Positions 1,691-30,839 of a stretch of 64,000 nt of DNA are shown here, in pieces. The notes under the pieces were generated by a model. The model had not been told where the DNA came from and ran no database searches. It saw only the letters and a list, made by a program, of their open reading frames with translations. The number at the start of each line of letters is the position of its first letter. The stretch's first letter is position 1. The DNA is taken from contig CAZSCV010000005.1 in the NCBI GenBank assembly GCA_964605525.1, positions 39,256 to 103,255 on the forward strand, read 5' to 3'. Source of the stretch: an uncultured Bdellovibrionales bacterium. GTDB lineage: Bacteria; Patescibacteriota; Minisyncoccia; Moranbacterales; UBA9337. Both the position numbers and the translations under genes were made by a program.

Positions 1691-1703
1691 TAAGAAGGAA
1701 AGC

Positions 1704-2850: not shown

Positions 2851-2878
2851 ATTTATACCAGTCTTTTTCTGGCGGAAT

Positions 2879-2904: not shown

Positions 2905-3091
2905 AAGAGATAAAAGATTTTAAAAAAATGATTGAGAATTTGAAATTAAAATTAATCTCCTTGTTCGAAGCTGTGCATAGACGGATTTTTAGGTATGAGA
3001 TGAGTGATGAATAAGGTCTTTTAAAAAGTATTTCTTGACATCCCGTTTCTGATAGTGTACTATTATTGTATACTATTAGAAATAAGTATTT

Positions 3092-3748: not shown

Positions 3749-4575
3749 AAAAAGTAATCCTGGAGTTAAAAAATATTATTGATGAAAACTCTGACAGAAC
3801 TGATTCGTATAAACGAAATTTATTAAAAAATTATTTACAGGTATATGCTTTAAATTTTATTTATTCTGAAAAAAAATACAGTAATTTAATATTTTATGGA
3901 GGCTCAGTTCTTTCTCAGTGTTATAACTTACCGCGTCTTTCTGAGGACTTAGATTTTGTGGATCTGACTGGGCGCATTAACCTAAGCGATTTGGCGAATG
4001 ATTTAAAAAACTACCTTAAAAAAGAGTTGGGCTTGCCATTAGAAATTAAAATACAGAAATTTAGAATATATTTGAAAGTTCCAATTCTTAAGCAACTGGA
4101 GGTATCTACTGACTCAGAATCTGACTGGCTTTATTTAAAGGTGGAAATTTTTAATGGGACAGGCTTTTGCAAAAAGCATAAAACAGAAATTAGGCCACTT
4201 TTTAAATTTAATCAATCGGTGTTAATTAAAACTTTTGATTTGCCAACATTAATGGCAACAAAAATTGGGGCTATTTTACATCGAAAATGGGAAAAAATCA
4301 GCAAATCCGGAGAAGTTCTGCTGAGCGTCAAGGGAAGGGATTACTTTGATTTAATGTGGTATTTGCAAAAAGACATCTCTCCGAATTTAGATTGCATAAA
4401 GGAGGTTGAGGATGTTGCGGAGTTAAAGAACGAGCTTTTAGATATTGTGAATAAAATTGATAAACAAAGCATTATTCTCGATTTGGAAAATTTTATCGCA
4501 GATAGGGAATTTGTTAAAAATCTTGGAAAAAATATAAAAGATATATTAAAAATAGAAATTAATAAATTGCACTAA
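3745..4575 (+). CDS. AbiEii/AbiGii-family nucleotidyltransferase toxin (DUF1814)
   Basis: Family motif IFYGGSVLSQCY...RLSEDLDFV (GGTAL...R.SEDlDf). Confidence 0.7.
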   Translation: MKKVILELKNIIDENSDRTDSYKRNLLKNYLQVYALNFIYSEKKYSNLIFYGGSVLSQCYNLPRLSEDLDFVDLTGRINLSDLANDLKNYLKKELGLPLEIKIQKFRIYLKVPILKQLEVSTDSESDWLYLKVEIFNGTGFCKKHKTEIRPLFKFNQSVLIKTFDLPTLMATKIGAILHRKWEKISKSGEVLLSVKGRDYFDLMWYLQKDISPNLDCIKEVEDVAELKNELLDIVNKIDKQSIILDLENFIADREFVKNLGKNIKDILKIEINKLH

Positions 4576-4623
4576 GGATTATACCAAAACAATGCGGTCG
4601 TCGAGTTTTTGGCATAATCATTA

Positions 4624-4812
4624 ATTACAGGAAAGTGGGGTGAGGCTTGAAAAGCATTGGTTTATCGTCTAACAATCGTCTATAATCTATGAGGGAGATA
4701 AAAAAATAAAAATAACCCCGAGGTTAAAATGGGTGGTATAATGTCTGTGGAAAGAATGATCTGGATCTGGTTTCCATTTTACCCCGAACAAGCGGAGTGG
4801 ATTTTGAAACTG
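4624..4812 (+). repeat. composite of repeat modules B', A', C', D' in the spacer upstream of the glycan locus
   Basis: B' at 4624-4649, A' at 4664-4686 (with a TATAAT), C' at 4732-4760 (tggtataat extended -10), D' at 4782-4809. The order C-D is permuted relative to the D-E-C arrangement at 1661-1833. Confidence 0.7.
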
Positions 4813-4881: not shown

Positions 4882-5688
4882 ATGGAGATAAAGATTGAAG
4901 AAATCAAAGAAATCGCCAAAAAATCCGGGGAAAAAGTTTTGGAATATTATTACAAAGATTATAATATTTCATACAAAGATAACGGTGGCAAAAAATCACC
5001 TTTGACTGAGGCGGATTTGGCGTCGGATAAAATAATCATGGAAGGACTTGAAAAATACAATTTTCCGATTTTGAGCGAAGAAACGGAAGATGATTTATCA
5101 AGGATTCAAAGTGAATATGTTTGGATTGTTGATCCGTTGGACGGTACGAGTGATTTTATGGAAAAGACCGGTGAATTTTCGATTCTTATCGGGTTAGTGA
5201 AAAATGGTGATCCGGTTTTGGGTATGGTTTTCGAACCGGTAAAAAATACTTTTTATTGGGCGGAAAAAGGGAAGGGCGCTTTTATGGAAAAAAATGGAAA
5301 AATCAAAAAAATAAATGTTTCCAATAAGGATAATTTTCAAGATATGACTATTTTGCTCTCGCGAAATCATCTTTTGGAAAGCGATAAAAAACTTTGTGAA
5401 AATTTGAAAATAGGAAAACAAACAAAAAGAGGGTCGACTTCCAAAATGTGCGTGATTGCGCGTGGGGATGCGGAAATCTATGTAAATACCAGTGATAAAA
5501 CGGGGGAGTGGGATACTTGCGCGCCACAAGTAGTCTTGACGGAAGCGGGAGGTAAGATTGTGGATATGCGGGGAAAAGAACTAATGTATAACAAAAAAAA
5601 CCCGAAGAATCTTAATGGATTCGTGGTGTCAAATGGTAAAAATTATGCTAGAATAGTTGAGGAATTGAAAGGGGTAATAAAAAGTTAA
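4882..5688 (+). CDS. inositol monophosphatase family / 3'(2'),5'-bisphosphate nucleotidase (CysQ-like)
   Basis: IMPase motif WIVDPLDGTSDF. The gene is adjacent to the APS kinase. Confidence 0.65.
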   Translation: MEIKIEEIKEIAKKSGEKVLEYYYKDYNISYKDNGGKKSPLTEADLASDKIIMEGLEKYNFPILSEETEDDLSRIQSEYVWIVDPLDGTSDFMEKTGEFSILIGLVKNGDPVLGMVFEPVKNTFYWAEKGKGAFMEKNGKIKKINVSNKDNFQDMTILLSRNHLLESDKKLCENLKIGKQTKRGSTSKMCVIARGDAEIYVNTSDKTGEWDTCAPQVVLTEAGGKIVDMRGKELMYNKKNPKNLNGFVVSNGKNYARIVEELKGVIKS

Positions 5689-6227: not shown

Positions 6228-7039
6228 TAAAAATATTTTTTCTAAAAAAATATTATTTTATTGTTTATCATCTTACAAGAATGTTTTTTTTGGAAAATAT
6301 GGTGATAAATAAAGAAAACAAGCACAAAAGAATATATCATTATCATATTAGAAAAACCGGAGGAACAAGCTTGAATAAGATGTTTTTTTTATTAAATAAC
6401 ACAAAAGATGATTCAATGAATATATATAGTGAGATTTGCAATTCCATGAATCACAGAGCGGTTGATAGCATGAGTAGAATTTATGTTGGATATAATCCTT
6501 ATTTTATTGAAAATGAAGATTATTTTTATGGATTTTCTCATATTCCAATGCATAAAATAAAAATTCCTACAGAAATATTTACCTTTACAATAATAAGGGA
6601 TCCTGTCGAAAGAATATTGTCCCATTATAAAATGTTATTAGACTATGAAGCAAATAAAAATAAACATCCTTCGTTTAATACTGAAAAAAAATGGATAGGG
6701 GATAGCTTCGGTGATTTTATTAGTAGAGTGCCGTCTAGACATTTAATGAGGCAGTTGTATATGTTTTCCAATAGCTTTAATGTGGAAGAAGCAGTAGAGA
6801 ATATTTCAAAATGTTCCCATGTGATATTTTTTGAGGATTTTAATAAAGGAGTGAAATCGTTATTTGATAAACTAGAATTGGATATGCCGGAAATTATTCA
6901 TGAAAAGAAAAGTGCTGTATGTTTTGAGCCAAAATACGATGAATTGTTGATGTTAAGAAAACTGATAGAAAAAGAATTGGTTTTCTACGAAAGGGTAAAA
7001 TATATTTATAGGCATAGTGATTTATTGAATAATTTATGA
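6224..7039 (+). CDS. carbohydrate sulfotransferase (Sulfotransfer_2-like)
   Basis: 5'-PSB-like YHIRKTGGTSL and 3'-PB-like IIRDPVERILSHY motifs. ATGA overlap with cysC. Confidence 0.55.
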   Translation: MIKIFFLKKYYFIVYHLTRMFFLENMVINKENKHKRIYHYHIRKTGGTSLNKMFFLLNNTKDDSMNIYSEICNSMNHRAVDSMSRIYVGYNPYFIENEDYFYGFSHIPMHKIKIPTEIFTFTIIRDPVERILSHYKMLLDYEANKNKHPSFNTEKKWIGDSFGDFISRVPSRHLMRQLYMFSNSFNVEEAVENISKCSHVIFFEDFNKGVKSLFDKLELDMPEIIHEKKSAVCFEPKYDELLMLRKLIEKELVFYERVKYIYRHSDLLNNL

Positions 7040-14806: not shown

Positions 14807-15970
14807 TTATTTGTAGATATTTTCTAGCTTGGAACAAACTTTGTCTATGGAAAATTTAATCGCAATCATATTTTTTGAATTTATGGATAGTTTTTTCTTT
14901 AAATCGGAATCATTTAGGATAGTTAATATTTTATCTGAAAATTCAGTTTTATTTTTTAGTTCCAATTCAAAGCCTGCTTTATGTGTTTCAATTTCTGGAA
15001 CATTGCAGTTTTTTGAGATGATCTGGGGGATGCCAATGGCGGCGACCTCCAAAACTGTCATAGGTAGACCTTCGTTTCTGGATGTGAAAATAAAAATATC
15101 ACACGATTTTATCGTTTCGAGTTTTTCTTTTCCGGTTAGTATTCCAGTAAAAACAACGTTGTTTTGCAAATCTAGTTCAATTGCCATTTTTTTTAATTTT
15201 TCTTTTTCTCCTTCATCGGGACCGATAATAAGATAGGTGAATTTTGTTTTGTATTTTAGGGAAGATAGAATTTCTATTGATATATCCACTCCTTTGATAT
15301 ATTGCAATCTTCCGATATATGCGATGATTTTATTTTCTTTCGGAAAATTGTATTTTTTACTTAGATTGATTTTTTTGATGTTTTCAAATTCTTCAAGGTG
15401 GAGACCATTGGGAATGATAATAGTTTTATTCTCAAATTTTTTGTTTATTGAAATTATTTCACTTTTTTCATTTTCCGTCAGGGCAATAATGTTCTTTGAG
15501 TTTTTTAGTATGGTTGTAAAAATATCTAAAAAAATCTTTTTTATGAATTTAAATTTGGCCTCTTGTCGAACCAAGGAAAGAGTGCCGTGAGGTTGAATAA
15601 TGAAGGGAATATTATGTTTTTTGCAAAAATGGGCAGTAATGATGTTTTGTAAAGTAAAAAAATCATGGCAATGAACTACATCAAAATTTCGTATATTATT
15701 TTTAGCCCAAAAATAAAATCCAATTGGTAAGTACCCGTTGCAATTTTTGGCTAGCCAATTACTGATGTTTCTGAAGCGGATAATTTTTATTCCGTTAACA
15801 TCTTCTTGAAGTTTTAAGATTCTATTTTTTTTATCAAGTGTGTCTGTTGTGACCACGGTAACTTTGTTTTTGCGGGCGGTTAATTCTTTGGAAATATCGA
15901 AACAAACTTTAACTGGTCCGCCGAAGCCGTAGGCTGGAATAAAATATGGAATAACTTGAAGTATTTTCAT
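14807..15970 (-). CDS. glycosyltransferase family 4 (GT-B)
   Basis: RNEGLPMTVLEVAAIGIPQI motif. Confidence 0.7.
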   Translation of the reverse strand: MKILQVIPYFIPAYGFGGPVKVCFDISKELTARKNKVTVVTTDTLDKKNRILKLQEDVNGIKIIRFRNISNWLAKNCNGYLPIGFYFWAKNNIRNFDVVHCHDFFTLQNIITAHFCKKHNIPFIIQPHGTLSLVRQEAKFKFIKKIFLDIFTTILKNSKNIIALTENEKSEIISINKKFENKTIIIPNGLHLEEFENIKKINLSKKYNFPKENKIIAYIGRLQYIKGVDISIEILSSLKYKTKFTYLIIGPDEGEKEKLKKMAIELDLQNNVVFTGILTGKEKLETIKSCDIFIFTSRNEGLPMTVLEVAAIGIPQIISKNCNVPEIETHKAGFELELKNKTEFSDKILTILNDSDLKKKLSINSKNMIAIKFSIDKVCSKLENIYK

Positions 15971-18398: not shown

Positions 18399-19436
18399 TT
18401 ATGATTCTTTTTTCATATCCGCTTTCATCATTATTTTTACCAACTCTTTGAATTTGGTTTTCGGCTTCCAATTCAATTTCTTTGCCGCCTTTGTCGGATC
18501 TCCCAGAAGTAGATCGACTTCGGTAGGGCGGTAATATCTTGGATCGATTCTGATCATTATTTTTTTTGTATTTTCATCAATTCCAACTTCTTTTTCTTTT
18601 TTTCCTTTCCATTTCAATTTTATTTTGGCGACTTTGCAAGCCTCTTCAATAAATTCTCGCACGCTGTGAGTTTCGCCGGTTGCCAAAACAAAATCATCCG
18701 GAGTTTTTTGTTGGAGCATCAGCCACATCCCTTCCACATAATCTTTTGCATAGCCCCAGTCTCGCTTGGAGTCGATATTTCCCAAATAGAGGCAGTCATC
18801 TTTTCCGGCTAAAATTCTGGCAAGTCCGCGAGTGATTTTTCTAGTCACAAAAGTTTCTCCGCGACGCGGTGATTCGTGATTGAAAAGAATTCCATTGCAC
18901 GCATATAGATCATAACTTTCTCGATAATTTACGGTTATCCAATAAGAATATAGTTTGGCGACTCCATAGGGTGAGCGGGGATAAAATGGAGTAGTTTCTT
19001 TTTGCGGGGTTTCTTGAACAAGTCCGAAAAGTTCACTGGTAGATGCTTGATAGAATTTGGTTTTTATTCCGGATTCTTTGATTGCATCTAAAATTCTCAA
19101 CGTTCCAATACCGGTGACATCGGCGGTATATTTTGGCACATCAAAGCTGACTTTGACATGGCTTTGAGCGGCAAGGTTGTATATCTCATCCGGCTTTATT
19201 TTTTCAATTATGCGGCTAATATTGCTTCCGTCCGACAAATCTCCATAGTGCAAAAACAAACGCACATTGTTCAGGTGCGGATCTTTGTACAAATGATTTA
19301 TTCTTCCTGTGTTGAATGAGCTTGATCGGCGAATTATTCCGTGAACTTCATATCCTTTTTCTAATAATAATTCGGCTAGGTATGATCCGTCTTGTCCCGT
19401 TATTCCCGTTATTAATGCTTTTTTCTTTTTTTTCAT
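18399..19436 (-). CDS. gmd: GDP-mannose 4,6-dehydratase
   Basis: [33 protein letters not shown]. Confidence 0.9.
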
Positions 19437-19469
19437 TATCGCGCAGCGTATTAGATTTTTTACGATTGT

Positions 19470-19817
19470 TTATTGTTTGATCTCAGATTCATTGATAGCT
19501 TTTTTTCTTACGATTTCAGTCATCTGTTGTTCCAGTCTTTCGATAGCGGAGAGCAGTTTGAATATCATTAGGAATATTAAAAGAAATCCGGCAAGTATTA
19601 CGGCGTTTATATTTCCTTCAAGTCCAATTATGCGAGCCATTATATTAGTAAAAGAAGGAAAGAGCGCAATCAGAATCATTCCACCCCAGACAAAAAAACG
19701 AATGGATAGCTTATAAAAATTCTGACCCGTTTTACCTTTGACAAAATTTACAATTCCGGAATAAATCATTGATGAAGAAACTATGATCACGATAATTTGA
19801 TATAGATGTAGAGACAT
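19470..19817 (-). CDS. DUF2304-family small membrane protein (commonly paired with GT2 enzymes)
   Basis: 115 aa with 3 TM segments and a C-terminal charged tail. Family resemblance only. Confidence 0.45.
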   Translation of the reverse strand: MSLHLYQIIVIIVSSSMIYSGIVNFVKGKTGQNFYKLSIRFFVWGGMILIALFPSFTNIMARIIGLEGNINAVILAGFLLIFLMIFKLLSAIERLEQQMTEIVRKKAINESEIKQ

Positions 19818-19910
19818 AATATTTGTAATTTATTTTTTCTAATGTTGATTGTAGCAATTTTTTTTAAATTGAACAACTATATGTCGTAACTTGTTAATTT
19901 AAAAAATAAG

Positions 19911-19950
19911 ATACCCAGCTGTTTTAAGGCTGGGTTTTTTGTAAGTTACT
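19911..19950. terminator. bidirectional rho-independent terminator
   Basis: Hairpin cccagctgttttaaggctggg flanked by an A-run and a T-run. It lies between two minus-strand genes, at the low-GC / higher-GC boundary. Confidence 0.7.
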
Positions 19951-19975
19951 TGTTTTTTGAATGGCAACTAGTGCA

Positions 19976-20335
19976 TTATTCCTTGGTTGCTCGAATAGCA
20001 ACCGGATATGCATTAGTTCCAGGTGTACATCCGGAAACATAAAAATATACCGTAAGTCCTTCTGCTTGTGCAACTTCCATGGCGATGGACATGCGGTCAC
20101 CATTAGTGCTCACTGTTCCATCCAGATTTATTAATTGAATGTCGATGTATGTTGCTGATCCGCAGCCGTCGGGATTGGTTAGGACTGATAATGGTTCCAC
20201 ACGAAAAATATCGTCACTTACGTAATAAGTTTGACCGATTAAAGTCGGTCCGATCCAGCCAGCACCGAAAGTCGTATTTGCTAAAAGTAAAAATGGCAAC
20301 ACAACAAGTAGAAACAGGGGGGTTGTTTTTTTCAT
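19976..20335 (-). CDS. small secreted protein (signal peptide, 2 Cys), function unknown
   Basis: N-terminus MKKTTPLFLLVVLPFLLLANTTFG. 4-nt overlap with the upstream FN3 gene. Higher GC than the genome background. Confidence 0.5.
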   Translation of the reverse strand: MKKTTPLFLLVVLPFLLLANTTFGAGWIGPTLIGQTYYVSDDIFRVEPLSVLTNPDGCGSATYIDIQLINLDGTVSTNGDRMSIAMEVAQAEGLTVYFYVSGCTPGTNAYPVAIRATKE

Positions 20336-20970
20336 TGGATACTCCTTTTCTTTTTTAATAGGATTATTCTTGTTGCGGATCCTTTTACAATCCGCGATGT
20401 TCCATCAATCATTACAACCGTAAACATTACGGACTTTCCGTAATATCCGGTTGCATCATATGGAGATACTGCGAAGAAGTATCTTCCGTCGGCGAGGCTC
20501 AAAGTCGAGAGGTCGAGCGACGTTGTCGCTCCGACATCAATTTCGTTGGTGGTGCCTCCTTTGACGGTGTCATAGAATACTGAGTATCCTGCGACGTCAC
20601 CAGCCCCCGCTGTCCAACTCAGGATTGTTCCCGTGGTGATGATGGGAGTGGAGGGACTTTTGAGACCGAAATTGATGTAATACGGGACAGCGTGAGCGTC
20701 AGTCGCTGCATCTCCCGTTCCGAATGTAAAAGTGTTAACACCTTCCGTGAGCGCAGAGGTTTTGAATTCCCCGCTACAAACTCCGGAAGTATCGGTGAAT
20801 GTGAAAGTATATATGAGTACTTGTTCATGATATACCCTTACGGTATCGTCGACTATATTACTGCAGTCGACAGATGTTCGAATCGTTGCTTCTTCGGCGA
20901 TTACTGTTCCAGTCCAAAAAAACAACAAGAAAAACCATAAAAATTGAAAAATCAAAAATCGTCTCTTCAT
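20332..20970 (-). CDS. secreted protein with a fibronectin type III-like domain
   Basis: Signal peptide, then an FN3-like signature (W..G..v.GY.vfyd....ttsLdLstLsladGrYfFaVspyDatG). Strong SD (gggagg) upstream. Confidence 0.5.
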   Translation of the reverse strand: MKRRFLIFQFLWFFLLFFWTGTVIAEEATIRTSVDCSNIVDDTVRVYHEQVLIYTFTFTDTSGVCSGEFKTSALTEGVNTFTFGTGDAATDAHAVPYYINFGLKSPSTPIITTGTILSWTAGAGDVAGYSVFYDTVKGGTTNEIDVGATTSLDLSTLSLADGRYFFAVSPYDATGYYGKSVMFTVVMIDGTSRIVKGSATRIILLKKKRSIQ

Positions 20971-21222
20971 TTCTCCTCCCTCGCCTCCCTTATTTCAGGA
21001 GACTTTTTATTTTATTGTCAAAACAACTATTTCTTATCCTTATATCACTATTTTGCCGTATTTTGGAAAAAAAGCAAGTTTTTTTGATGTTGAGATTGAC
21101 AAATGAGGTTGAGATAGGGGATAATGGGAAATCATAGAAATATGGTTGTTGGTTGCAGTTGTTTGACAAATGAATAATGGAATAATGATTGATGAATATA
21201 AAATTATATAGGAGGAAGGAAG

Positions 21223-22378
21223 ATGAAAGATATGAAGATAATCGGATTGGAAGATGTTTTGAAAAAGGCGAAAAAATATGCCGCTACGGATGTTCCGATT
21301 CTCATCACTGGAGAGCCGGGAGTGGGGAAGGAAGTTGTGGCGGAATTTATTCACAGGAATAGTTTGCGTGCGGAAAGAGTTTTCAATCCGCTTAACTGTG
21401 GGGCCGCTAATGGCCTCGTGGACAGCGAACTTTTCGGACACAGAAAGGGCTCTTTTACGGATGCTCGCTTTGATCGCCCGGGACGTTTGATGGCATCTGC
21501 TGGCGGGACGGTTTTTTTGGACGAGATTGGCGATATGCCGACTTCCGTTCAAGCAAAAATCTTGCGGTTTTTGAACGGCAGAGGCGAGATTCAGCAAATC
21601 GGGGCGGACCGTCCCGTATATGTTGAAACGCGCATAATTTGCGCAACAAATCAGTTGCTCCGAAAAATGGTTTCAGAAAAAACGTTTCGGAGAGATTTGT
21701 ATAGTCGGATTTCCGGGTTTGAAATTCACATTCCGTCGCTTCGCGAGCGCAGGGATGAGATTCCAACTTTTCGTGGAACATTTTTTTGAGTATTTCACTG
21801 AGAAATATCAAAAAAAATGGTGTCGCGATTTCATTATCCCTCGTCTTACAGAGCTGGCGATGGAAATGTCATGGCCGGGGAATGTCAGGGAATTGATGGG
21901 TTGGATCGAGAAGTTTGTTGTTCTTGAAGATCTTGAGACAGCCTGTTGTTCTAGTAAAAAAGAAATAAAGATCATCAGGAGTGTTCCTGATGATGCAATG
22001 GGAAAATGCATTATAATTCCGGAGAAAGAGTTTCCCCTTTTTCCCGAGGAGGTTGGTTTTGAAAAAATTCCGGTTGAAGGTGGTTTTGTGGATGGGGAAT
22101 GCTTTGCACCTAATTGTGCAAGCGGGGATTTTCAGCCGTTGTCATTGAGTTTTAATCCGTTTGTTCTCGATAATTTCCGTTTTTTGGAAATGGATGAACC
22201 TCAAAAAAAAGAAGCTTTGAAAAAAGCTCTTGAAAAAAATAATGGGGTTGTAACGGCGGCTGGAAGGGATTTGGGCTTGCCCGAATCTTCGGCTAGCTAT
22301 TTCGTAAAAAAATTGGGGCTTATTGAGTATGCAAGGGAACTCAAAAAAGCCGCAAAAAAATCGGAAAAATCCGCTTGA
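21223..22378 (+). pseudogene. sigma-54-dependent transcriptional activator (AAA+ bEBP, PspF-like, no sensor domain), disrupted by a +1 frameshift near 21768
   Basis: Walker A GEPGVGKE, GAFTGA-loop variant GSFTDA and RRDLYSRI in frame 1. WPGNVREL and a C-terminal Fis-type HTH in frame 2 (ORF 21719..22378). Removing one A in ccaactttt restores EIPLFVEHFFEYF. Confidence 0.75.
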
Positions 22379-22385
22379 TTTAAAA

Positions 22386-22421
22386 CAGGATCGGCACAAA
22401 TGCGCCGACCCTGTTTTTTTG
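22386..22421 (+). terminator. rho-independent terminator
   Basis: Hairpin caggatcggcacaaatgcgccgaccctg followed by T7. Confidence 0.7.
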
Positions 22422-22431
22422 TCTTTTAAAT

Positions 22432-22476
22432 TTAATGTACCAGTTTCCAGAGCATTTTCCAGACGGTTTTGATGCC
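22432..22476. repeat. 45-bp direct repeat, copy 1, duplicating the 3' end of the GT2 gene at 23805..24494; the second copy is 23805..23849 (the native 3' end)
   Basis: 44/45 identical. The reverse complement encodes GIKTVWKMLWKLVH plus a stop, which is the C-terminus of the GT2. The copies bracket the second AbiE-like cassette. Confidence 0.85.
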
Positions 22477-22553
22477 ACTTGTAAGGGCAAATTGACAATA
22501 TTTCAAGTTATGATAAACTGAAAGTAAGAAAAAATAACACTTTTAGTCTATAT

Positions 22554-23126
22554 ATGGATAATTTTCTGACAATTATATATGGTTCAAAACAAACGGTTTT
22601 TACCAGCAAAGAAATCGCTATTTTAATCGGGGAAAAAAATGCCGATAAACTCAAGTCAAAGTTGTCCTATTATGTGAAAACCGGAAAATTGATCCGGCTT
22701 CGTCGTGGAATTTTCTCAAAAAAAGATGATTATGACAAAAATGAACTGGCTGTCAGAATTTTTACTCCGGCATATGTGAGTTTTGAAACGGTTTTAGCAA
22801 AAGAAGGCGTGATATTTCAATATTATGAAACAATTTTTGCAGCCAGCTACCTTTCGCGGAATCTGAAATTCAGGGAAAATAAATTTACGTTTCGAAAACT
22901 CAAAAGTGAGATATTGATTAATCAGCAAGGATTAATAAATCGAGGGACGTATTTTGAGGCATCAAAAGAGCGAGCTTTTTTGGATATGTTGTATTTGTTT
23001 GGAAGCTGTCATTTTGATAATCTTCGAAATATCAATTGGAATACTTGTTTTGATATTGTCGGTATATATAAAAACAAAATGCTGGAAAAAAGACTTAAAA
23101 ATTATTTTGAAAAATATGCTAAATAA
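22554..23126 (+). CDS. AbiEi-like antitoxin/regulator (type IV TA, putative)
   Basis: 190 aa, directly upstream of and overlapping the AbiEii-like gene. Its own TTGACA-N16-TAAACT promoter lies at ~22492-22520. GC is at genome background, unlike the surrounding island. Confidence 0.45.
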   Translation: MDNFLTIIYGSKQTVFTSKEIAILIGEKNADKLKSKLSYYVKTGKLIRLRRGIFSKKDDYDKNELAVRIFTPAYVSFETVLAKEGVIFQYYETIFAASYLSRNLKFRENKFTFRKLKSEILINQQGLINRGTYFEASKERAFLDMLYLFGSCHFDNLRNINWNTCFDIVGIYKNKMLEKRLKNYFEKYAK

Positions 23127-23808
23127 AGAAAAACACAGACTGGTTATGGCGCAAATATTAAAAGATATTTATTCTGATATCTCTATTGCATCTCTGTTGG
23201 GTTTTAAGGGTGGTACGGCAGCATATTCATTTTATGAATTGCCGAGATTTTCTGTTGATTTGGATTTTGATTTATTGGATGACTCTGAATCAAACAGGAA
23301 TTTGATATTCGAAAAAATAAAAAATATTATTTCAAAATACGGTGAAATCAAGGACAAACAACAAAAATTTGCGACTATATTTTTTGCTCTTTCATATGAA
23401 TCAGGTGAGCATCAAATAAAGGTTGAAATAAATATGAGAAAAACCGGTGCCAGTTATGAAATGAAAAATTATTTCGGCATACCGGTTTTGGCAAGTACCA
23501 AAGAGTCTATGTTTTCGGCAAAACTAGTGGCACTTTTGAATCGCAAGGAATTTGCGGCGCGGGATCTTTTTGATGTGTATTATTTTCTCAAAAACAATTG
23601 GGGGACTGATAATAATGTTTTTGAATCATATAATATTTCGTCTGAAAAAGAATATATCAAAAAGTGCGTTTCTTTTGTTGAAAACGTTCCGGAGAATACT
23701 TTATTGAAAAATCTCGGAGAGCTTATTGATGAAAAGCAAAAAGAATTTGTCAAAACAAAAATAAAAGACGAGGTAATTTTTATGTTAAAGGCTCGTTGGA
23801 ATATTTAA
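23116..23808 (+). CDS. AbiEii/AbiGii-family nucleotidyltransferase toxin (DUF1814)
   Basis: LLGFKGGTAAYSFYELPRFSVDLDFDLL motif. Start is the in-frame ATG at 23116; an alternative is 23146. Confidence 0.7.
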   Translation: MLNKEKHRLVMAQILKDIYSDISIASLLGFKGGTAAYSFYELPRFSVDLDFDLLDDSESNRNLIFEKIKNIISKYGEIKDKQQKFATIFFALSYESGEHQIKVEINMRKTGASYEMKNYFGIPVLASTKESMFSAKLVALLNRKEFAARDLFDVYYFLKNNWGTDNNVFESYNISSEKEYIKKCVSFVENVPENTLLKNLGELIDEKQKEFVKTKIKDEVIFMLKARWNI

Positions 23809-24494
23809 TGCACCAGTTTCCAGAGCATTTTCCAGACGGTTTTGATGCCGTTGGCAAGCGATTGCTTTTGAGCTTTTCCCATTGAGTATTCTGTATAGCG
23901 GACTTGAATGGGGATTTCTTTGTATTTAAGTTTGTATTTGTATATTTCCCGGATTACTTCGCTGTCATATTCATATCGGTCGCCAAGAGTGTTGATGACT
24001 TCGGCGGCGCGACGGGAATAGGCGCGCAATCCCGATTGACTGTCGGTAACCCAAAGACCATAGAGATACCAGGTGATGGCGTTGCCGATTTTGTTGTGGA
24101 TGATTTTGTACCAAGGCATTCCTTCAGGATTCATCAGACGCGAACCCAAAACCACGTCGCAATTTCCTGAGGCGATAGGGGAGATGAGGCGCGCAATGTC
24201 TTTGGGGTCATGCTGTCCGTCGGCATCCATTGTGATGATAATATCAGCGCCCAAAAGTTTGGCGGCTTCAATACCGGTTTTGGCGGCCGCTCCTTTTCCG
24301 CGGTTGATTTTGTGCCGGAGCGCCGTGGCGCCGGGAATTTCCTTGGATTTGGAAAAAGTGCCGTCCGCGCTTCCGTCGTCGACGATAATGATTTTTTCAT
24401 ATCCGGCATCGCGGATTTCTTTGGCAACATCAGCAATAACCTTTTCTTCGTTGTAAGCGGGAATAACGATATAAATTTTTTCGTTGTTTTTCAT
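23805..24494 (-). CDS. glycosyltransferase family 2 (polyprenyl-phosphate sugar synthase, DPM1-like)
   Basis: IYIVIPAYNEEKVI...IIVDDGSADGT. Noticeably GC-rich. Confidence 0.8.
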   Translation of the reverse strand: MKNNEKIYIVIPAYNEEKVIADVAKEIRDAGYEKIIIVDDGSADGTFSKSKEIPGATALRHKINRGKGAAAKTGIEAAKLLGADIIITMDADGQHDPKDIARLISPIASGNCDVVLGSRLMNPEGMPWYKIIHNKIGNAITWYLYGLWVTDSQSGLRAYSRRAAEVINTLGDRYEYDSEVIREIYKYKLKYKEIPIQVRYTEYSMGKAQKQSLANGIKTVWKMLWKLVH

Positions 24495-24517
24495 ATTTGT
24501 TATTATATGTCATTTTT

Positions 24518-24561
24518 GAAAAATAAAAAACCCCGCCAAGCGCTCGTGGCGCATGGCGGGG
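24518..24561 (-). terminator. rho-independent terminator for the lipoprotein gene
   Basis: Hairpin ccccgccaagcgctcgtggcgcatggcgggg followed on the minus strand by a T-run. Confidence 0.65.
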
Positions 24562-24568
24562 GCAAAGG

Positions 24569-25042
24569 TTATTCTAAATAGACTACTTCTATCTCATTTG
24601 AATGATCACTTATGTATACCAAGCGGTGTTCAAATGGATAATACGCTATTACTTTGTTAGTGAAGTAGTATTTTTTGATTCCCGGAACTGTTTGGATTTT
24701 TATTTTTATCCATGGAGACCTCACACCGGAAACCTCCCTCTTGGAAACTATAAAAATCCGATCATAATTTCCGCTTTGGGTGCCGTAGGATATTATATAT
24801 CCCAGTATCGTTTCTCCGTATCCCTCTTCGGCATACGAGAAATTTTCAATAGACGTATCTATTAATATGTTATCAATAAATCGTTCTTTTCTTTTATTAT
24901 CATCCGGTGTATCCCATGCGAAAGTTAGCGAAACTTCTTTTTCTAAATTTCTTTCGACAACAAGATGTGACTGCGACGTGCAAGCTGCCAGTGGCAACAA
25001 TATCGACAACAAAAATAAAACAGATAAGAGATGTTTCTTCAT
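24569..25042 (-). CDS. lipoprotein, function unknown
   Basis: Signal peptide with lipobox LAAC. Confidence 0.5.
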   Translation of the reverse strand: MKKHLLSVLFLLSILLPLAACTSQSHLVVERNLEKEVSLTFAWDTPDDNKRKERFIDNILIDTSIENFSYAEEGYGETILGYIISYGTQSGNYDRIFIVSKREVSGVRSPWIKIKIQTVPGIKKYYFTNKVIAYYPFEHRLVYISDHSNEIEVVYLE

Positions 25043-25054
25043 TATAATACCTCA

Positions 25055-25996
25055 TTATTTTTCAGTTTTGGGTTTGAAATACGGATTTGGAAATCCGTAT
25101 TTAATTTCCGTTGACGGACCTGAGATCTCACCGCTTGAGAGGTAGAGAATGCAGGCGATATAAAAAACGATATCGCGCTGGTTTTTCCATTGGTGTACTG
25201 TTGTAGTTATGACAAGTGACTTTGCGGGATTTTCCGGTGTGGCAGTCAGACCCACATCGATTACGTGGTCATACTTCCGGCTCTCGGTGCCGTACAAGAT
25301 TTTGTAGCCGGCAAGCTTCTCCTCTTCCAGATTTTTATCCCACACCAATTTTATTTCTGGGGTCCGGATTATGACATTTCCCTTCTTGTCTTTTTCCAAT
25401 GACACGAATTTCGCGTCCTTTTCCTTTTCGGTTTTATTTTTATACCGGATAAAGAAATATGGACGTCGGATATCCGAGTCGTCGCCATCGGAAATTCCGT
25501 CATTGTCGGAATCAGGGTCGATGATGTTTGGAATGTTGTCTTCATCGAAGTCGATTTTGTTTTCGACTCGATCAATTCCCCAAGTTGCCAATTCTTCGCC
25601 GTCAGGAATCCCATCTTCATCGGAATCCGCTTTTTTTGGATCGGTTCCGATTTTTTGTTCGAAATCATCCGCCAACCCGTCCTTGTCGGAGTCGATTTGA
25701 TTTTCTCCGATTTGAAAAAGGATGATCTCCTCGGACGGAGGCATTTCCCTCCTGTCTTTGACAAATGAAACAGAAATGAAATTCGGCGCATCCAAATAGA
25801 GCGGAAGAGTGGAAACACTGACCTCGGTTAAATTTTCAACCGTGATTTTTTCCGAATAATCACGGGAATGCTTCCCGATTCGGATGATGTACTCCTTTAC
25901 GGTTATATCCGGCAATTTCGGCCAGATAATTTCGTATCCTAATGCAACGTCGGAACACGAAAAAACAAAGCAAAAAATCAGGAATACTTTTTTCAT
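25055..25996 (-). CDS. secreted calcium-binding protein with thrombospondin type-3-like DxDxDG repeats
   Basis: Signal peptide plus repeated DSDKDGLADD, DSDEDGIPDGEE, DEDNIPNIIDPDSDNDGISDGDDSD motifs. Confidence 0.55.
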   Translation of the reverse strand: MKKVFLIFCFVFSCSDVALGYEIIWPKLPDITVKEYIIRIGKHSRDYSEKITVENLTEVSVSTLPLYLDAPNFISVSFVKDRREMPPSEEIILFQIGENQIDSDKDGLADDFEQKIGTDPKKADSDEDGIPDGEELATWGIDRVENKIDFDEDNIPNIIDPDSDNDGISDGDDSDIRRPYFFIRYKNKTEKEKDAKFVSLEKDKKGNVIIRTPEIKLVWDKNLEEEKLAGYKILYGTESRKYDHVIDVGLTATPENPAKSLVITTTVHQWKNQRDIVFYIACILYLSSGEISGPSTEIKYGFPNPYFKPKTEK

Positions 25997-26090
25997 GGCA
26001 AAACCTCTCGGGTTTAATATGTTGAATTGTTAAGAAGCTGTTTTTTGTTTTCATAAAAGTCTAGCATATTTTCGCATAAAAGCAATACTG

Positions 26091-26123
26091 CTACAAAATC
26101 TCGCGATCGTGAGTGTTTTGTAG
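26091..26123. repeat. 33-bp imperfect palindrome ctacaaaatctcgcgatcgtgagtgttttgtag; second copy in inverted orientation at 30858..30890
   Basis: A 22-nt core tacaaaatctcgcgatcgtgag is identical between copies. It sits between a terminator and the next promoter. Confidence 0.7.
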
Positions 26124-26139
26124 TGTGGGAATGTGGGAA

Positions 26140-26179
26140 ATAAAAAAGGACTCATGCAAGGCAATGCTTGCATGAGTCC
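26140..26179 (-). terminator. strong rho-independent terminator for the 646-aa protein gene
   Basis: Perfect 13-bp stem ggactcatgcaag/cttgcatgagtcc followed on the minus strand by TTTTTTATTT. Confidence 0.8.
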
Positions 26180-26203
26180 TGTTGTGTCGGGTTTCCGACG
26201 TTA

Positions 26204-28144
26204 CTATTTCAAACAAGATAACAGTGAATGATCGGAAGAGTGATCGAATTCAAATTCGCTTACTCCTGCCATTCTGACAGTGCGATTTGTTCCAACCCCG
26301 TGGACTACTGAGATGATGGGATTGTCATATCCCTTCTCTTGCCACGAAAATTGGTGGAGCTTGTCCGTTTCGAATACATCACCATTTTTAGTTTTTGTAT
26401 CCAGAGACTCGGTTTCCCCTGTTGCCTCGACAAATACGAACGGTACTCCGTCGATGAGCATATGGTTTGAAAATGGATCTGTGATCACCCTTTCCGCCGG
26501 AATATTTTCCGCCTGCACTAACGTGACGGCATGACCTCGTCCGAAAAAGTTGAGGGTTCCGATGGCAACTGTGCTGGTGTCGCCGAGGACGGTGTTCTCG
26601 GCGGAAAAATAAAGCGTTGCCATGGCAATGGCATGTCCCTCGCAGTCTTCACCGCGATTGAGCATTGCCATTGGAAGTGTCATTGGAATTTCCTCGGGAC
26701 TGTTATTTCCGGACTTACTTCCATCAAACTTCTTGTCGGAAATATAGTCCAGATCTCGGGCCGAAAAATCGGAAATTTTTTGAAGTGCCTCTGGTTTAGT
26801 TGAGGCATCTCCGATGATTTCCTTGGCAAGTCTTTCAGTGGAGGGCGTTTTGACGATGTATGCCGCAAGATAGCTGTCGCCAAAATTACTATTTCCGTTG
26901 CCGGGATAGAGCGGTAAGACTTTCGCCCGGCGGTTTTCCTCGACTTGCTGTTGCGCAACAAGAATGTCGCGATATGTTATTGACTTGTCGCGTTTGGCGC
27001 CGAGTACAATTGGATCATCTTGACCCATTTTCGCCAAATAGGAAAACGGGATGATGATTGATTGTGTCGGGTCGAGTGACCCAAAAAAGAGCAGTTCATT
27101 GCGGGAATTCCGCAATGGAACTGCCACTTCGTCGTACCCGTCAACTTCGTGACCGTTTTTGTCGGTTTTTTTCCAGGCGACAACGGTCATATCGACAGGA
27201 AGGTCTGCTGAATACACAGGACGTGCATTTAGACCGCTTCCTGTAATCTCGATTTTTTTCGGATCAAGATATGCTCCATAAGCGGCAGCATATTGATTCG
27301 AAATCAGTCGCGTTGTTCGCTCCTGATCCCACTCGCCAGTCTCCCAATCGCAAAGATTAGTGAGGATATAGTAGGCAACTAGGAGAGATTCTTCCGGTTC
27401 TAGATTGGGCGTTCCTAATTCAACACTGGTTTTGTCCCGGCGCCCCTTGCCATTGGGGTGCAAAAATATATAGATGTCGCCCGAAAGGTCGATCCAGCGT
27501 GTTTCGCCGTCGGCGAATTGCCGATTGAAACCAGTAAGACCTTGCATTCCATCTGTTTCGAAAAACGGATTGGACATATAATAATCCGAGCCTTGAACAA
27601 GCGCGCCATTACTGCCGGAGAAATCTCCATATGGTACTGAAGAGAATGCCATCGAAAAATTTTCCCTTGCTACGATTTCCGTGTTCATTTTTCCCTCTCT
27701 TGCGATTCGAGAGGGGAGAACCCAGTCCATCGCTGTGGTTCGCGAAAGGTATTTCCTTGCCGCGTTGTACGCGGCAAAACTTACAGGATCATTCAGCTCC
27801 CGATTTTTTCCGTCGCCTTCGACAATAGAAATCGTGTCGCCGAGAGCGAACCTTCCATTGACGAAGTCAAGCCATGAAATCGTGATGGACTGGATGTGAA
27901 GATCTTTTTCGATGCTGGAATATGGGATGTGATACACCCCTCGATAGGGGTGATGGATTTTTGCTGCATTGGATACGGCATATTCGACCGCGAACCCTCC
28001 GCCGACAAAAAACGCAATTGTGAAAAATATCCCCAGCCATTTGAAAACAGATTTTGCAATTTGTTTTCTGGGTTGGAAATTACCGCTTGTTGTTCCGGAA
28101 ACATGCTTTGCTTCCGGCCAATTCAGTTTTTCCAGATAACTCAT
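26204..28144 (-). CDS. N-terminally membrane-anchored extracellular protein (646 aa) with a C-terminal transglutaminase-like Cys-His-Asp core
   Basis: TM helix WLGIFFTIAFFVGGGFAV near the N-terminus. Candidate C-terminal triad GEDCEGHAIAMATLYF ... GHAVTLV ...(18 aa)... DP. GC-rich. Confidence 0.45.
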   Translation of the reverse strand: MSYLEKLNWPEAKHVSGTTSGNFQPRKQIAKSVFKWLGIFFTIAFFVGGGFAVEYAVSNAAKIHHPYRGVYHIPYSSIEKDLHIQSITISWLDFVNGRFALGDTISIVEGDGKNRELNDPVSFAAYNAARKYLSRTTAMDWVLPSRIAREGKMNTEIVARENFSMAFSSVPYGDFSGSNGALVQGSDYYMSNPFFETDGMQGLTGFNRQFADGETRWIDLSGDIYIFLHPNGKGRRDKTSVELGTPNLEPEESLLVAYYILTNLCDWETGEWDQERTTRLISNQYAAAYGAYLDPKKIEITGSGLNARPVYSADLPVDMTVVAWKKTDKNGHEVDGYDEVAVPLRNSRNELLFFGSLDPTQSIIIPFSYLAKMGQDDPIVLGAKRDKSITYRDILVAQQQVEENRRAKVLPLYPGNGNSNFGDSYLAAYIVKTPSTERLAKEIIGDASTKPEALQKISDFSARDLDYISDKKFDGSKSGNNSPEEIPMTLPMAMLNRGEDCEGHAIAMATLYFSAENTVLGDTSTVAIGTLNFFGRGHAVTLVQAENIPAERVITDPFSNHMLIDGVPFVFVEATGETESLDTKTKNGDVFETDKLHQFSWQEKGYDNPIISVVHGVGTNRTVRMAGVSEFEFDHSSDHSLLSCLK

Positions 28145-28164
28145 TTTTTCCTCCTCCTTTTTTG

Positions 28165-28533
28165 TCAGGAAATTCCGCCGGATAATTCTCTGATTCTCCA
28201 GAAAACTCCCGGCATAGAAACTGCGTTCGTATATTCCTCAAGAAAATAGCTATATACCTTTCTTTCGGAGTTGAAGCGAACCTCAACGGTTCGGTGTTTT
28301 TTCTTTGCAAGTATTACGATACTTTTCAGTTCATAAGAACTCATATCACGATCATTGCATCTTGCGATGCAATCTTCTCCGATGCGGTACATATAGACAT
28401 CTACGTACGGAATCGGATCACTGCTTTCAAATTCTGTTGCATTATTTCCACCCTCTGATCGAACGGTGAATATCAGGAATACGCAAAATATCATCAGAAA
28501 ATCCACAAAACGGCGCAATAATGCTTCTCTCAT
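28165..28533 (-). CDS. ExbD/TolR-like single-pass membrane protein (putative)
   Basis: N-terminal TM helix with a conserved Asp (RRFVDFLMIFCVFLIF), then a ~90-aa domain patterned like the ExbD periplasmic domain. ATGA overlap with the upstream MotA/ExbB-like gene. Confidence 0.4.
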   Translation of the reverse strand: MREALLRRFVDFLMIFCVFLIFTVRSEGGNNATEFESSDPIPYVDVYMYRIGEDCIARCNDRDMSSYELKSIVILAKKKHRTVEVRFNSERKVYSYFLEEYTNAVSMPGVFWRIRELSGGIS

Positions 28534-29228
28534 AATGTTTTCTCCTTATTGAGTCGCAGAATCACGATAAAAGTTTTGAGCAGGATTTTTCTTTCCTCCT
28601 CCACTACGGTATTAAGGGTTAAAATTACCAATCCTCCGTACAATGCTAGAATAGTAGTATCCATTGCCAGATCGGCTCCAGCGAGCATTGAAGCAACCGA
28701 CGAACTTTTCTCATGGCATGCCAACTTGAACCCGACGAGCGTGCCAATTAAACCCAGTGCGGCAAGAATATAATCCAAATATTTCACCGCATTTGTGGAG
28801 CGAAGAAAAACTTCCTCGAAATAATTATCCAACCCATTCTTCACTTCATCCGACCAATTTCTTTGGTTGGCCAGAGAAAGCTTTTGAAAATGCTGAACAA
28901 GAATTGAATCGAAAAATTTCTTAGATAATGGAAGTTCTCCGCGTTGCAGGCTGGTGTCATTTGTGTATGCAATCATCCTCTCAATCAATATCGCTTCACT
29001 TTTTGTTGAAAAAAGTGTTGCGATTGATGAAATTATTCCAATCGCTATGATTGCCGAAATGGCAATCATTAGCGGATTGGAAAAATCCATTTTTTGAACA
29101 ATCGGCATTTTTGCCAGAAAAAACGTCAACAAAAATACCGCCATCATCGTTTGTAAATATTTCCAGATAAAAACGGTTGAATCTTTGATGGTTCTTGTTG
29201 TTTTTGTGATTTCCAAAGTTTTTTCCAT
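28530..29228 (-). CDS. MotA/TolQ/ExbB proton-channel family protein
   Basis: C-terminal TM pair with family signature LAALGLIGTLVGFKLA ... AMDTTILALYGGLV. Confidence 0.55.
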   Translation of the reverse strand: MEKTLEITKTTRTIKDSTVFIWKYLQTMMAVFLLTFFLAKMPIVQKMDFSNPLMIAISAIIAIGIISSIATLFSTKSEAILIERMIAYTNDTSLQRGELPLSKKFFDSILVQHFQKLSLANQRNWSDEVKNGLDNYFEEVFLRSTNAVKYLDYILAALGLIGTLVGFKLACHEKSSSVASMLAGADLAMDTTILALYGGLVILTLNTVVEEERKILLKTFIVILRLNKEKTL

Positions 29229-29393
29229 TTGCCTCTTCCTCCTCCATAGATTTGCGGGGATATCCCGCTAGTTCGATATTCAATTGTCAAATTACTACAA
29301 AACTTCGAAAATTCCGATTATTCGGACTTTTCTTGTATTTGCTTTAATTATCCATTTCTTGTGTTTTAAAGTCAAGCTTTTTTACGTTTTTAT

Positions 29394-29422
29394 TGACAAA
29401 ACCTTGGAAGTTTCTTATTCTT
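29394..29422 (+). promoter_or_regulatory. sigma-70-like promoter TTGACA-N17-TATTCT upstream of ugd
   Basis: Sequence match. A strong SD (ggagaggag) lies 6 nt before the ATG. Confidence 0.5.
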
Positions 29423-29525
29423 GCAGAAAGTTGTTTGAAAAAATGGTTATGCTAAAATAAAAGCATAAAAAATAAAAAATCCCAAATTCGGGAAAAACTT
29501 CCCGAGATAGGGAGAGGAGAAAAGA

Positions 29526-30839
29526 ATGAATATTGCAATAATTGGTTCGGGTTATGTTGGGCTGGTCACTGGTGCGTGTCTAGCGGAATTTGGGCATCGG
29601 GTCATCTGCATGGATAAAGACAGCAGTAAAATCGAACGGCTTCGTAACGGCGAGATGCCCATTTACGAACCGGGATTGGATGCCTTGGTGGTCAAGAACG
29701 TCAAAGACGGCAGGTTGTCCTTCACCAGCAATATGGAAGAGAGCGTCAGTCAGGCCAAAGCTGTTTTTATCGCCGTGGGCACCCCCTCGTCCCGTCGTGG
29801 CGACGGCTATGCTGACTTGACCTATATTTATGCTGCAGCCAGGGATCTGGCCCCGTATTTAGGCAAATACACGGTGGTGGTTGATAAGAGCACCGTCCCG
29901 GTTGGCACAGCCAGACAGGTTGCGCGCGTCATAAGAGAGGCAAATCCCGCCGCCCAGTTTGATGTGGTTTCCAACCCGGAATTTTTACGGGAAGGCGCGG
30001 CAATCAATGATTTTATGCGTCCGGACCGGGTGGTCATCGGAATTGAGACGGAACGGGCCAGCGAGGTCATGAAAGAAATTTATAATCCTCTATACCTGAT
30101 CGCCACCCCATTTGTCTTAACCGGACTTGAAACCGCCGAACTGATCAAATACGCCTCAAATGCCTTCCTGTCGATGAAGATCTCGTTTATTAACGAGATG
30201 GCAAATGTGTGCGAGGTCTTGGGAGCGGATGTTATTGATCTGGCCAAAGCCGTTGGGCTTGATGGGCGCATTGGAAGGAAATTTTTACATCCCGGTCCCG
30301 GTTATGGTGGTTCCTGCTTTCCGAAAGATACATTGGCTTTGTTGCGAATTGCGCAGGAGAATGGAGTTCCAATTCGAACTGTCGCGGCAGCAGTTGAGAC
30401 TAATGCTGCTCAAAAAGCGGCGATGGTGAAAAAGATTCGTGACGCCCTCGGCGGTTCGGAGGCCGGCAAGACTATCGGAGTTCTTGGCTTGACTTTTAAG
30501 CCGGAAACGGATGATTTGCGAGATGCTCCGGCACTAACGATCTTGCCACCTCTTTTTGAAAAGGGGGCAAAAATTCAGGCGCACGATCCACAAGGAATGA
30601 CAGAGTGCGCCAAAATGTTTCCGGAATTTTCTTATGTTGGAGATGCGTACGAGGCAGCCGAGGGCGCGGATGTTCTCGTGCTGATGACAGAATGGAATCA
30701 GTATCGCGCGCTTGATTTGCAGGAGCTGAAATCCAGGATGAAAGCCTTGGTATTTGTTGACCTGCGCAATGTGTATAATCATAAGCAGGTGAAGGATGCC
30801 GGATTTACGTATGTTGGCGTAGGACGGGGAGGGTTGTAA
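29526..30839 (+). CDS. ugd: UDP-glucose 6-dehydrogenase
   Basis: MNIAIIGSGYVGLVTGACLAEFGHRV and the catalytic GGSCFPKD motif. The most GC-rich gene in the window by eye. Confidence 0.85.
   Translation: MNIAIIGSGYVGLVTGACLAEFGHRVICMDKDSSKIERLRNGEMPIYEPGLDALVVKNVKDGRLSFTSNMEESVSQAKAVFIAVGTPSSRRGDGYADLTYIYAAARDLAPYLGKYTVVVDKSTVPVGTARQVARVIREANPAAQFDVVSNPEFLREGAAINDFMRPDRVVIGIETERASEVMKEIYNPLYLIATPFVLTGLETAELIKYASNAFLSMKISFINEMANVCEVLGADVIDLAKAVGLDGRIGRKFLHPGPGYGGSCFPKDTLALLRIAQENGVPIRTVAAAVETNAAQKAAMVKKIRDALGGSEAGKTIGVLGLTFKPETDDLRDAPALTILPPLFEKGAKIQAHDPQGMTECAKMFPEFSYVGDAYEAAEGADVLVLMTEWNQYRALDLQELKSRMKALVFVDLRNVYNHKQVKDAGFTYVGVGRGGL

Follow-up and report, generated by a model that had tools for sequence, protein, structure and literature searches.

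How does a two-gene defence cassette come to lie against the end of a housekeeping gene, with a second copy of that gene end on its far side and no recombinase in view? The question is raised by a stretch of 64,000 nt from an uncultured member of the Moranbacterales (assembly GCA_964605525.1, contig CAZSCV010000005.1, positions 39,256 to 103,255; the whole stretch is called the window here and is numbered from its first letter), in which an operon for an AbiEi/AbiEii toxin–antitoxin pair lies tail to tail with a gene for a GT2-family glycosyltransferase. A first-pass annotation of this DNA had read the arrangement as the footprint of site-specific integration, the duplicated gene end being an att-like site. 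One part of this reading, an insertion that reconstitutes the 3′ end of the gene, agrees with what is found in related genomes; the other part, an att site of a site-specific recombinase, does not. We propose, with moderate confidence, that the AbiE cassette was acquired horizontally and that it entered the chromosome through general recombination, with the GT2 gene as the anchor and without a dedicated integrase.

The duplicated gene end and the cassette between its copies

The annotation had singled out a 45-mer at the 3′ end of the GT2 gene (TTAATGCACCAG...GATGCC) that recurs on the other side of the cassette with one synonymous difference, and this is what we found. The 45-mer has exactly two sites in the 64-kb window, at 23805-23849 without a mismatch and at 22432-22476 with one, and it is matched in none of 100 dinucleotide-preserving shuffles. 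In a repeat search the near-perfect core of the direct repeat is 2 nt longer, that is 47 nt. The same search also lists a stretch of 56 nt and 91% identity around this core; we rejected the greater length, as its score is matched by 1190 of 2000 shuffles and the extra 9 nt are at chance level. The sole mismatch between the copies, T at position 22438 and C at position 23811, corresponds to GTA and GTG, both of which encode valine. The copy next to the glycosyltransferase gene, which we call proximal, is continuous with the open reading frame (ORF) of GT2 and makes up its final 14 codons and stop codon. The distal copy, with the translation ...LTSGIKTVWKMLWKLVH-stop / ...GIKTVWKMLWKLVH-stop, has stop codons just upstream and no upstream ORF, and is therefore an orphan with no gene body. 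It lies beside a bidirectional hairpin (Table 1), which is the terminator of a convergent gene for a sigma-54-dependent activator and was, before the insertion, that of GT2 as well. The GT2 protein has more than 7,800 homologues, with 70-95% identity among the members from Moranbacteria; its best NCBIfam match is PpgS-like and lies under the cutoff.

Between the two copies lie, as had been annotated, the AbiEi/AbiEii pair and its promoter, with matches in PADLOC and Pfam and a GC content of 0.28-0.35 versus 0.45-0.52 in the flanks. In the AbiE family, AbiEii is a DUF1814 nucleotidyltransferase toxin and AbiEi is an antitoxin and autorepressor; together they form a type IV toxin–antitoxin or abortive-infection module. 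The operon resembles such systems in its two-gene structure, in the overlap of 11 nt between the end of AbiEi and the start of AbiEii, in its own sigma-70-type promoter and in its matches to PADLOC and PF08843. The AbiEii sequence contains the motifs GG[T] followed by SVDLDFD, and KLVALLNR...RDLFD, which we take to be nucleotidyltransferase signatures. The operon differs in that AbiEi lies below the curated cutoffs of Pfam (AbiEi_4, E=0.002) and NCBIfam (TAA_AbiEi, E=1.4e-9), and in that AbiEii is 1-3 codons shorter at its C-terminus than its homologues, which end in RWNII-stop or RWNIKD-stop. The C-terminus is shorter because the junction falls inside the last codons and the GT2 end supplies the stop codon: the TAA at 23806-23808 is part of the repeat and shares bases with the GT2 stop on the opposite strand. 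The promoter is kept upstream of AbiEi in six of the loci that we compared (numbered with an L throughout), namely L090, L091, L094, L106, L187 and L188. The operon looks intact and is predicted to act as a type IV toxin–antitoxin or abortive-infection cassette. Convergent transcription from AbiE into GT2 is possible, because no terminator now separates AbiEii from GT2.

Related genomes and other gene ends

The annotation had suggested a comparison with related genomes, in which an empty site might be found. Such a site exists in L007 (the same as L010, GCA_964600645.1; GT2 94% identical), where the GT2 stop codon is followed directly by a homologous terminator hairpin, ∼20 nt past the stop, with no cassette in between. 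In the closest relative, L001-L005 (Moranbacteria GW2011_GWE2_35_2-, 24 contigs; GT2 95% identical), the same position is occupied by a gene for a Fic protein of 342 aa, which is convergent with GT2 and bracketed by an 83-nt, 98% identical direct repeat of that lineage's own GT2 end; the homologue of the native terminator lies past the distal copy. A more distant Moranbacterium (L090), whose GT2 gene is 73% identical at the nucleotide level, carries an AbiE cassette 82% identical to that of the window. Here too the cassette lies tail to tail with GT2, and the direct repeat around it (32 nt, 97% identity) is a copy of the GT2 end of L090 (...YKMIWRIMQ-stop), which differs from that of the window. 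The empty site in L007 and the differing cargo in the relatives therefore identify the AbiE cassette as an insertion, at a site that was used more than once. The insertion keeps the reading frame of GT2 and displaces a copy of its 3′ end, as had been claimed. At ∼25 other Moranbacteria-like GT2 loci, from genome and metagenome scans, we found neither a second copy of the gene end nor a cassette, and the event is therefore sporadic and not universal. The annotation had also named a widespread genomic repeat as an observation that would speak against its reading; the 45-mer is not dispersed in the window, in viral contigs or in the fetched loci, and a 28-mer core of the repeat is absent from IMG/VR viral contigs and occurs in the fetched loci only at GT2 ends.

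The two sides of the GT2 gene have different closest relatives. Within GT2 the window, L001 and L007 are 86-90% identical at the nucleotide level. When window positions 19000-30000 were compared, the 5 kb upstream of GT2 was ∼77% identical to L007 and unalignable with L001, and the downstream side was 85-94% identical to L001 and unalignable with L007. GT2 thus appears as a conserved anchor between variable flanks, and the alignments indicate a mosaic ancestry around it. A recombination breakpoint inside GT2 was considered and not adopted: alignment columns 501-600 lean towards L007 (14:7) and columns 601-900 towards L001 (22:8), which is no more than suggestive, the partition having been drawn post hoc.

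The same layout, in which a gene is followed by a convergent defence cassette and then by a displaced copy of its own end, is also seen at other genes, in L190, L109 and L015; the L109 and L015 cases came out of an unbiased search, a self-BLAST of 2.25 Mb of compared sequence. In L190 (4995-7493; also in L191 and L192) an AbiE cassette is convergent on a different GT2-family gene, of 258 aa. On its promoter side lies a displaced fragment of ∼93 codons including the stop, annotated as an ORF of 81 aa; the copies are only 85% identical at the nucleotide level and therefore come from different alleles. In L109 (502-3500) the gene is one for a GATase, and the convergent cassette is an AbiE pair from a different subfamily (1145-2552, minus strand). 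The 3′ end of the GATase gene is repeated over 71 nt (the last 69 nt of the gene plus 2; 1048-1118 and 2691-2761, 92%), and the displaced GATase copy is found just upstream of the GT2 gene of the same genome. L015 (12065-18793, Moranbacteria UBA4824) holds an array in which the final 140 nt of a GT2-family gene recur at 18642-18781 (98%) and, in part, at 15680-15756 (88%); these copies separate a block of GT2 and GtrA from a block of PDC-S01 and AbiE. The repeats at genes other than GT2 are unrelated in sequence and range from 71 to ∼280 nt.

The window itself contains a second array of defence cassettes at 185-4810. The 123-nt duplication around its Fic gene (Table 1) holds the first ∼25 codons and the promoter of a neighbouring minus-strand membrane-protein gene, and its block of PDC-S01 and AbiE is bracketed by duplicates of the cysQ promoter region (1806-1833 and 4733-4760; 1652-1690 and 4771-4809). 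Throughout the 64 kb, direct repeats of high identity are found only around defence cassettes. No clean comparison gave an empty site for this array: cysQ of the L001 lineage is preceded by an epimerase gene, and L185 shares the cysQ promoter only. About half of the AbiE loci of the subfamily found at GT2 have no flanking repeat (L091, L094, L106 and L188).

Table 1. Positions of the features at the GT2 locus and in the second array of the window
Feature	Position	Strand	Evidence or remark
GT2-family polyprenyl-phosphate sugar synthase-like glycosyltransferase, 229 aa	23805..24494	-	PF00535 E=4e-26
Proximal repeat copy, working 3′ end of GT2	23803..23849	-	repeat and 45-mer searches
Displaced orphan GT2 3′ end: last 14 codons, stop (22432-22434) and 2 nt past the stop	22430..22476	-	47 nt, 1 mismatch versus 23803-23849
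Promoter of the AbiE operon: TTGACA, 16-nt spacer, TG-TAAACT	22492..22519	+	best regional promoter match, 10/12 positions
AbiEi antitoxin and transcriptional regulator, 190 aa	22554..23126	+	PADLOC AbiEi E=2.4e-61, full length
AbiEii nucleotidyltransferase toxin, 230 aa	23116..23808	+	PF08843 E=1e-18 (above cutoff); PADLOC AbiEii E=3.8e-66, residues 3-226
Native bidirectional terminator hairpin	22382..22421	.	-20.6 kcal/mol, z=-5.6; also picked by terminator scan
Sigma-54-dependent activator gene, convergent with GT2	21223..22378	+	PF00158 E=1.5e-54, AAA_lid_14 E=1.4e-8
SoFic-type Fic gene	552-1589		flanked by 123-nt duplication, 185-307 / 1692-1815
Truncated PDC-S01/DUF4143 ATPase	2002-2850		in second array
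Second AbiEi/AbiEii pair	3092-4575		in second array

The homologues of GT2 assign the window to Candidatus Moranbacteria, which belong to the CPR/Patescibacteria. The 64 kb comprise a cell-envelope and glycosylation cluster together with housekeeping genes. The sigma-54 activator gene is broken into two ORFs that overlap (21223-21789 and 21719-22378) in the window as well as in L008 and L009, and is intact in L001 (421 aa); the apparent frameshift near 21719-21789 may reflect a pseudogene or a lineage-wide sequencing error. In the second array a remnant of a Fic-type operator is seen at ∼4676-4700, with no adjoining Fic gene. The Fic cassettes of the window (495-535) and of L001 (7735-7790) have a common promoter that is overlapped by 2-3 direct CGTCTA(T/A)AAT-like units (TTGACAATCGTCTAATAATCGTCTATAATTAGTCTATAAT), and these repeats are probably an autoregulatory operator. 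AbiE loci without repeats (L091-L093, L094-L099, L106 and L188) sit in clusters for glycosylation and surface proteins, in contexts as different as between two LCAT-like lipase paralogues, beside a zeta toxin, after DUF2304 and beside ParA. L100 (1310-7015) contains three tandem AbiE pairs with GC-rich repeats of 92-167 nt between them that include a palindrome (CCTGCCTGTCGGTAGGCAGG), and the whole array is flanked by a repeat of ∼100 nt (1353-1454 and 6918-7015, 91%); the layout is integron-like, and no integrase was seen there. An element of 50-64 nt (GTTTCGGCCAATTTTGGATAAAAAGGCG...) precedes the promoters of different cassettes, namely AbiE, a ParA-like block and an HTH gene. It occurs in L187 at 270-320 and 1685-1735, flanking AbiE on both sides, and in L188 at 3088-3151 and 5290-5353, and may be a portable cassette-boundary sequence.

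Junctions, repeat boundaries and the search for a recombinase

The claim that the repeat is an att site was not supported by the junctions. At the GT2 end the repeat measures 47 nt in the window, 83 nt with the Fic cargo of L001 and 32 nt with the AbiE cassette of L090. In the window one copy stops 14 nt short of the -35 box, and the other meets the cassette within the last AbiEii codons; in L090 the corresponding junctions are 88 nt upstream of the -35 box and 61 nt past the stop codon of the cassette (0 in the window). AbiE cassettes of different genomes are 77-82% identical at the nucleotide level and the two Fic cassettes 69%, and in both cases the alignment covers no more than the stretch between the -35 box and the stop codon. 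We found no arms or terminal repeats that are conserved between cassettes of different genomes. One candidate, a GT2-like ‘P arm’ (AAGTGGCA) seen in both the window and L090, was rejected, as 817 of 2000 and 246 of 2000 shuffles reach its score, and an 8-mer shared by the same two loci was not significant by shuffles either. Each repeat is a copy of the local GT2 allele, even where about one-third of the positions differ between lineages. Of microhomology, the AbiEii/GT2 junction shows only a 3-nt overlap, ATT, which is trivial in AT-rich DNA. As the boundaries vary, the repeats are local and the duplicated genes are unrelated, one integrase specificity cannot explain these sites.

Two features are more regular. 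The outer boundary of the repeat lies 1 nt past the stop codon in L001, 2 nt in the window and in L109 and 4 nt in L090, and in all six cases the cargo and the duplicated gene point towards each other.

That the window encodes no integrase, as the annotation had stated, was confirmed: none of its ORFs of at least 150 aa matches an integrase, resolvase or transposase family in Pfam. Nor does the annotation of L001-L009, L090-L100 and L188-L192 show a recombinase gene within 6 kb. The repeat search found no inverted repeats that pair the cassette ends, and inspection of the repeat for Xer/dif-like or attC-like sites, by eye only and with no formal test, gave nothing convincing. The insertions do not qualify as transposons or insertion sequences: they have no transposase and no terminal inverted repeats, and their duplications extend from 32 to ∼280 nt. 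They do not qualify as integron cassettes either, the repeats being GT2 coding sequence and the window holding no integrase family, in a comparison that included no dedicated attC model. A phage or satellite as the vector was rejected, since IMG/VR contigs contain neither the 28-mer core nor any close relative of AbiEii or of the L001 Fic protein. We also rejected a mobility function encoded by the toxin, because Fic and AbiE cargo leave the same footprint.

How the cassette may have arrived, and what it would mean

Homology-facilitated illegitimate recombination (HFIR) is a route of the kind that we favour; in type VI secretion system (T6SS) and Rhs loci, orphaned 3′ regions and immunity arrays have been explained by such a homology-anchored route (PMC5361080). 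Two of its hallmarks are found here. The conserved anchor gene is bordered by non-homologous flanks, each of which aligns with only one relative; a displaced 3′ fragment lies beyond the new module, and belongs to another allele in L190; and L015 holds an array of displaced ends. The likeness to T6SS, Rhs and contact-dependent inhibition loci lies in the conserved upstream anchor, the old 3′ end displaced downstream, the arrays built by successive events and the lack of an integrase (PMC5361080). In contrast to those loci, the anchor here is a housekeeping glycosyltransferase or another biosynthetic gene and not a toxin gene, the insert is a self-contained convergent defence operon, and the displaced pieces are much shorter.

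From these footprints we infer the route of recombination, the copy that came from the donor and a trimming by deletion. The incoming DNA, either linear and taken up by transformation or a circle with a short piece of GT2, would have had the convergent cassette behind a GT2 3′ end. It would have undergone homologous recombination within GT2, and its other end would have been joined illegitimately, or the circle would have been integrated via a single crossover, 47 nt before the resident stop codon. GT2 would now end in the proximal copy, which would have arrived with the cassette, and the resident last 14 codons and stop would have been pushed 1.37 kb downstream, still beside the native terminator. 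Later deletion in a compact genome may have trimmed non-coding DNA and thereby produced the overlapping convergent stops and the short orphan. The arrays in L015, in L100 and at 185-4810 of the window would be the record of successive events of this type. Genes for DNA uptake and RecA do not lie within the 64-kb window; competence and pilus genes have been reported to be prevalent in Patescibacteria (PMC12455944).

Several points weigh against this proposal. HFIR was rare in the model organisms studied (PMC5361080). The route is read from footprints only, and neither a donor allele nor a circular form was recovered, nor, within the same population, a polymorphic empty allele. The end of the repeat 1-4 nt past the stop codon in four events (L001, the window, L090 and L109) is one such point: trimming of non-coding DNA is the explanation we favour, and a precise, enzyme-defined cut could be the alternative. 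The convergent orientation in six of six cases is not predicted by recombination alone; both regularities could arise from deletion bias in a streamlined genome and from selection against read-through into the toxin operon. In three cases the proximal copy is 97-98% identical to the distal one, which needs a closely related donor or later gene conversion. Finally, an integrase might act in trans from beyond the 64-kb window, which we regard as unlikely but not negligible.

The integrase is the centre of the reading that the annotation had offered. The cassette would then be what remains of an integrative element, or a passenger that such an element can mobilise in cis. The integrase of the element would recognise the 3′ end of GT2, the 47-nt repeats would be attL and attR, and a replacement gene end would have been carried along. 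The footprint does match such an element in its direct repeats, reconstituted gene end and orphan fragment; the empty site exists in L007, the same gene end served in two or three events with differing cargo, and the outer boundary is nearly fixed. A counterpart is e14, which leaves the icdC fragment at icd by way of an integrase (PMC13626634). Our locus shares with e14 and phage 21, both integrated at icd, the orphan C-terminal fragment beyond the insert, the intact target gene and the flanking direct repeats (PMC13626634). The present insert differs from these in that it has no integrase and is a single operon of only 1.3 kb, and in that repeat length and junctions vary at one site while the repeat is always the local allele. 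No integrase is found in the element, in the 64-kb window or in the annotated flanks of related loci, and the inner boundaries and cassette junctions change from event to event, without conserved arms. The use of unrelated genes with unrelated repeats would require many integrases, of which none is seen, and the 28-mer core is absent from viral contigs. The nearly fixed outer boundary and the uniform orientation are not well explained by our proposal, and we therefore leave an integrase acting in trans a minor share of the probability.

For the same reason we leave a slimmer chance to an unrecognised trans-acting system that inserts defence cassettes at gene 3′ ends, in fixed orientation and with long target duplications of variable length. 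It would account for the convergent cargo in all six cases and for the boundary 1-4 nt past the stop in four of them. The cargo is moreover always a known or candidate defence module (AbiE, SoFic or PDC-S01), and the high-identity repeats of the 64 kb, without exception, surround such modules. However, we identified no candidate enzyme, the repeats range from 32 to ∼280 nt, and the 85% identical pair in L190 cannot have arisen as a fill-in duplication of one target. A flanking repeat is missing altogether from about half of the AbiE loci, and selection and deletion bias can explain the regularities. Integron gene cassettes and chromosomal cassette arrays are another known parallel, likewise with small cassettes of one or two genes, often toxin–antitoxin pairs with their own promoters, and, here in L100 and L187/L188, with arrays separated by repeats; they differ in that here intI and a recognisable attC structure are missing, the repeats at GT2 are fragments of host coding sequence and the orientation of the cassettes is not uniform.

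It is improbable that AbiE and GT2 are ancient, vertically inherited neighbours, with the repeat arising by local duplication or gene conversion and the empty sites by secondary loss. AbiE does adjoin GT2 in two lineages that are only 73% identical in the GT2 nucleotide sequence, and recombination between direct repeats would give a scarless loss. Yet the cassette is closer than GT2 between those lineages (82% versus 73%), figures that suggest a cassette phylogeny incongruent with that of the hosts, the ∼25 other Moranbacteria GT2 loci have neither cassette nor repeat, and the sister lineage holds Fic and not AbiE at the site. The lower GC content of the cassette also speaks against vertical inheritance, and the same cassette family occurs in at least five other contexts. 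A chimeric join at a repeated k-mer can practically be dismissed: the window does come from a metagenome assembly, with a repeat that typical reads exceed in length, but the identical structure in two independent assemblies (L008 and L009) makes an artefact unlikely, and analogous structures recur in many samples of the L001 lineage (24 contigs) and in other lineages.

General recombination anchored in conserved genes would matter for the biology of these bacteria. Members of the Candidate Phyla Radiation (CPR, Patescibacteria) have tiny genomes with few recognisable mobile elements, and the gain and loss of their phage defences is poorly understood. The defence cassettes described here lie in a variable cluster for cell-surface glycosylation, and our comparison suggests that conserved housekeeping genes serve as landing pads for defence modules via ordinary recombination, probably after DNA uptake. 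We can imagine, as a tentative extension, that Moranbacteria, and perhaps CPR bacteria generally, shuffle AbiE, SoFic and PDC-S01 cassettes between conserved biosynthetic genes without an integrase, the duplicated gene ends acting as portable recombination sites, or else that they possess an unknown enzyme that inserts at stop codons in a fixed convergent orientation. If such shuffling occurs, cassettes would excise as circles via the repeats and re-enter at the same gene end, forming integron-like arrays without an integron. The single locus presents a known defence system and a known kind of footprint, and its interest lies in the integrase-free pattern that recurs across Moranbacteria. If this pattern is general, it would explain arrays of toxin cassettes without integrons and would provide a simple, searchable signature of recent gene gain in uncultivated bacteria.

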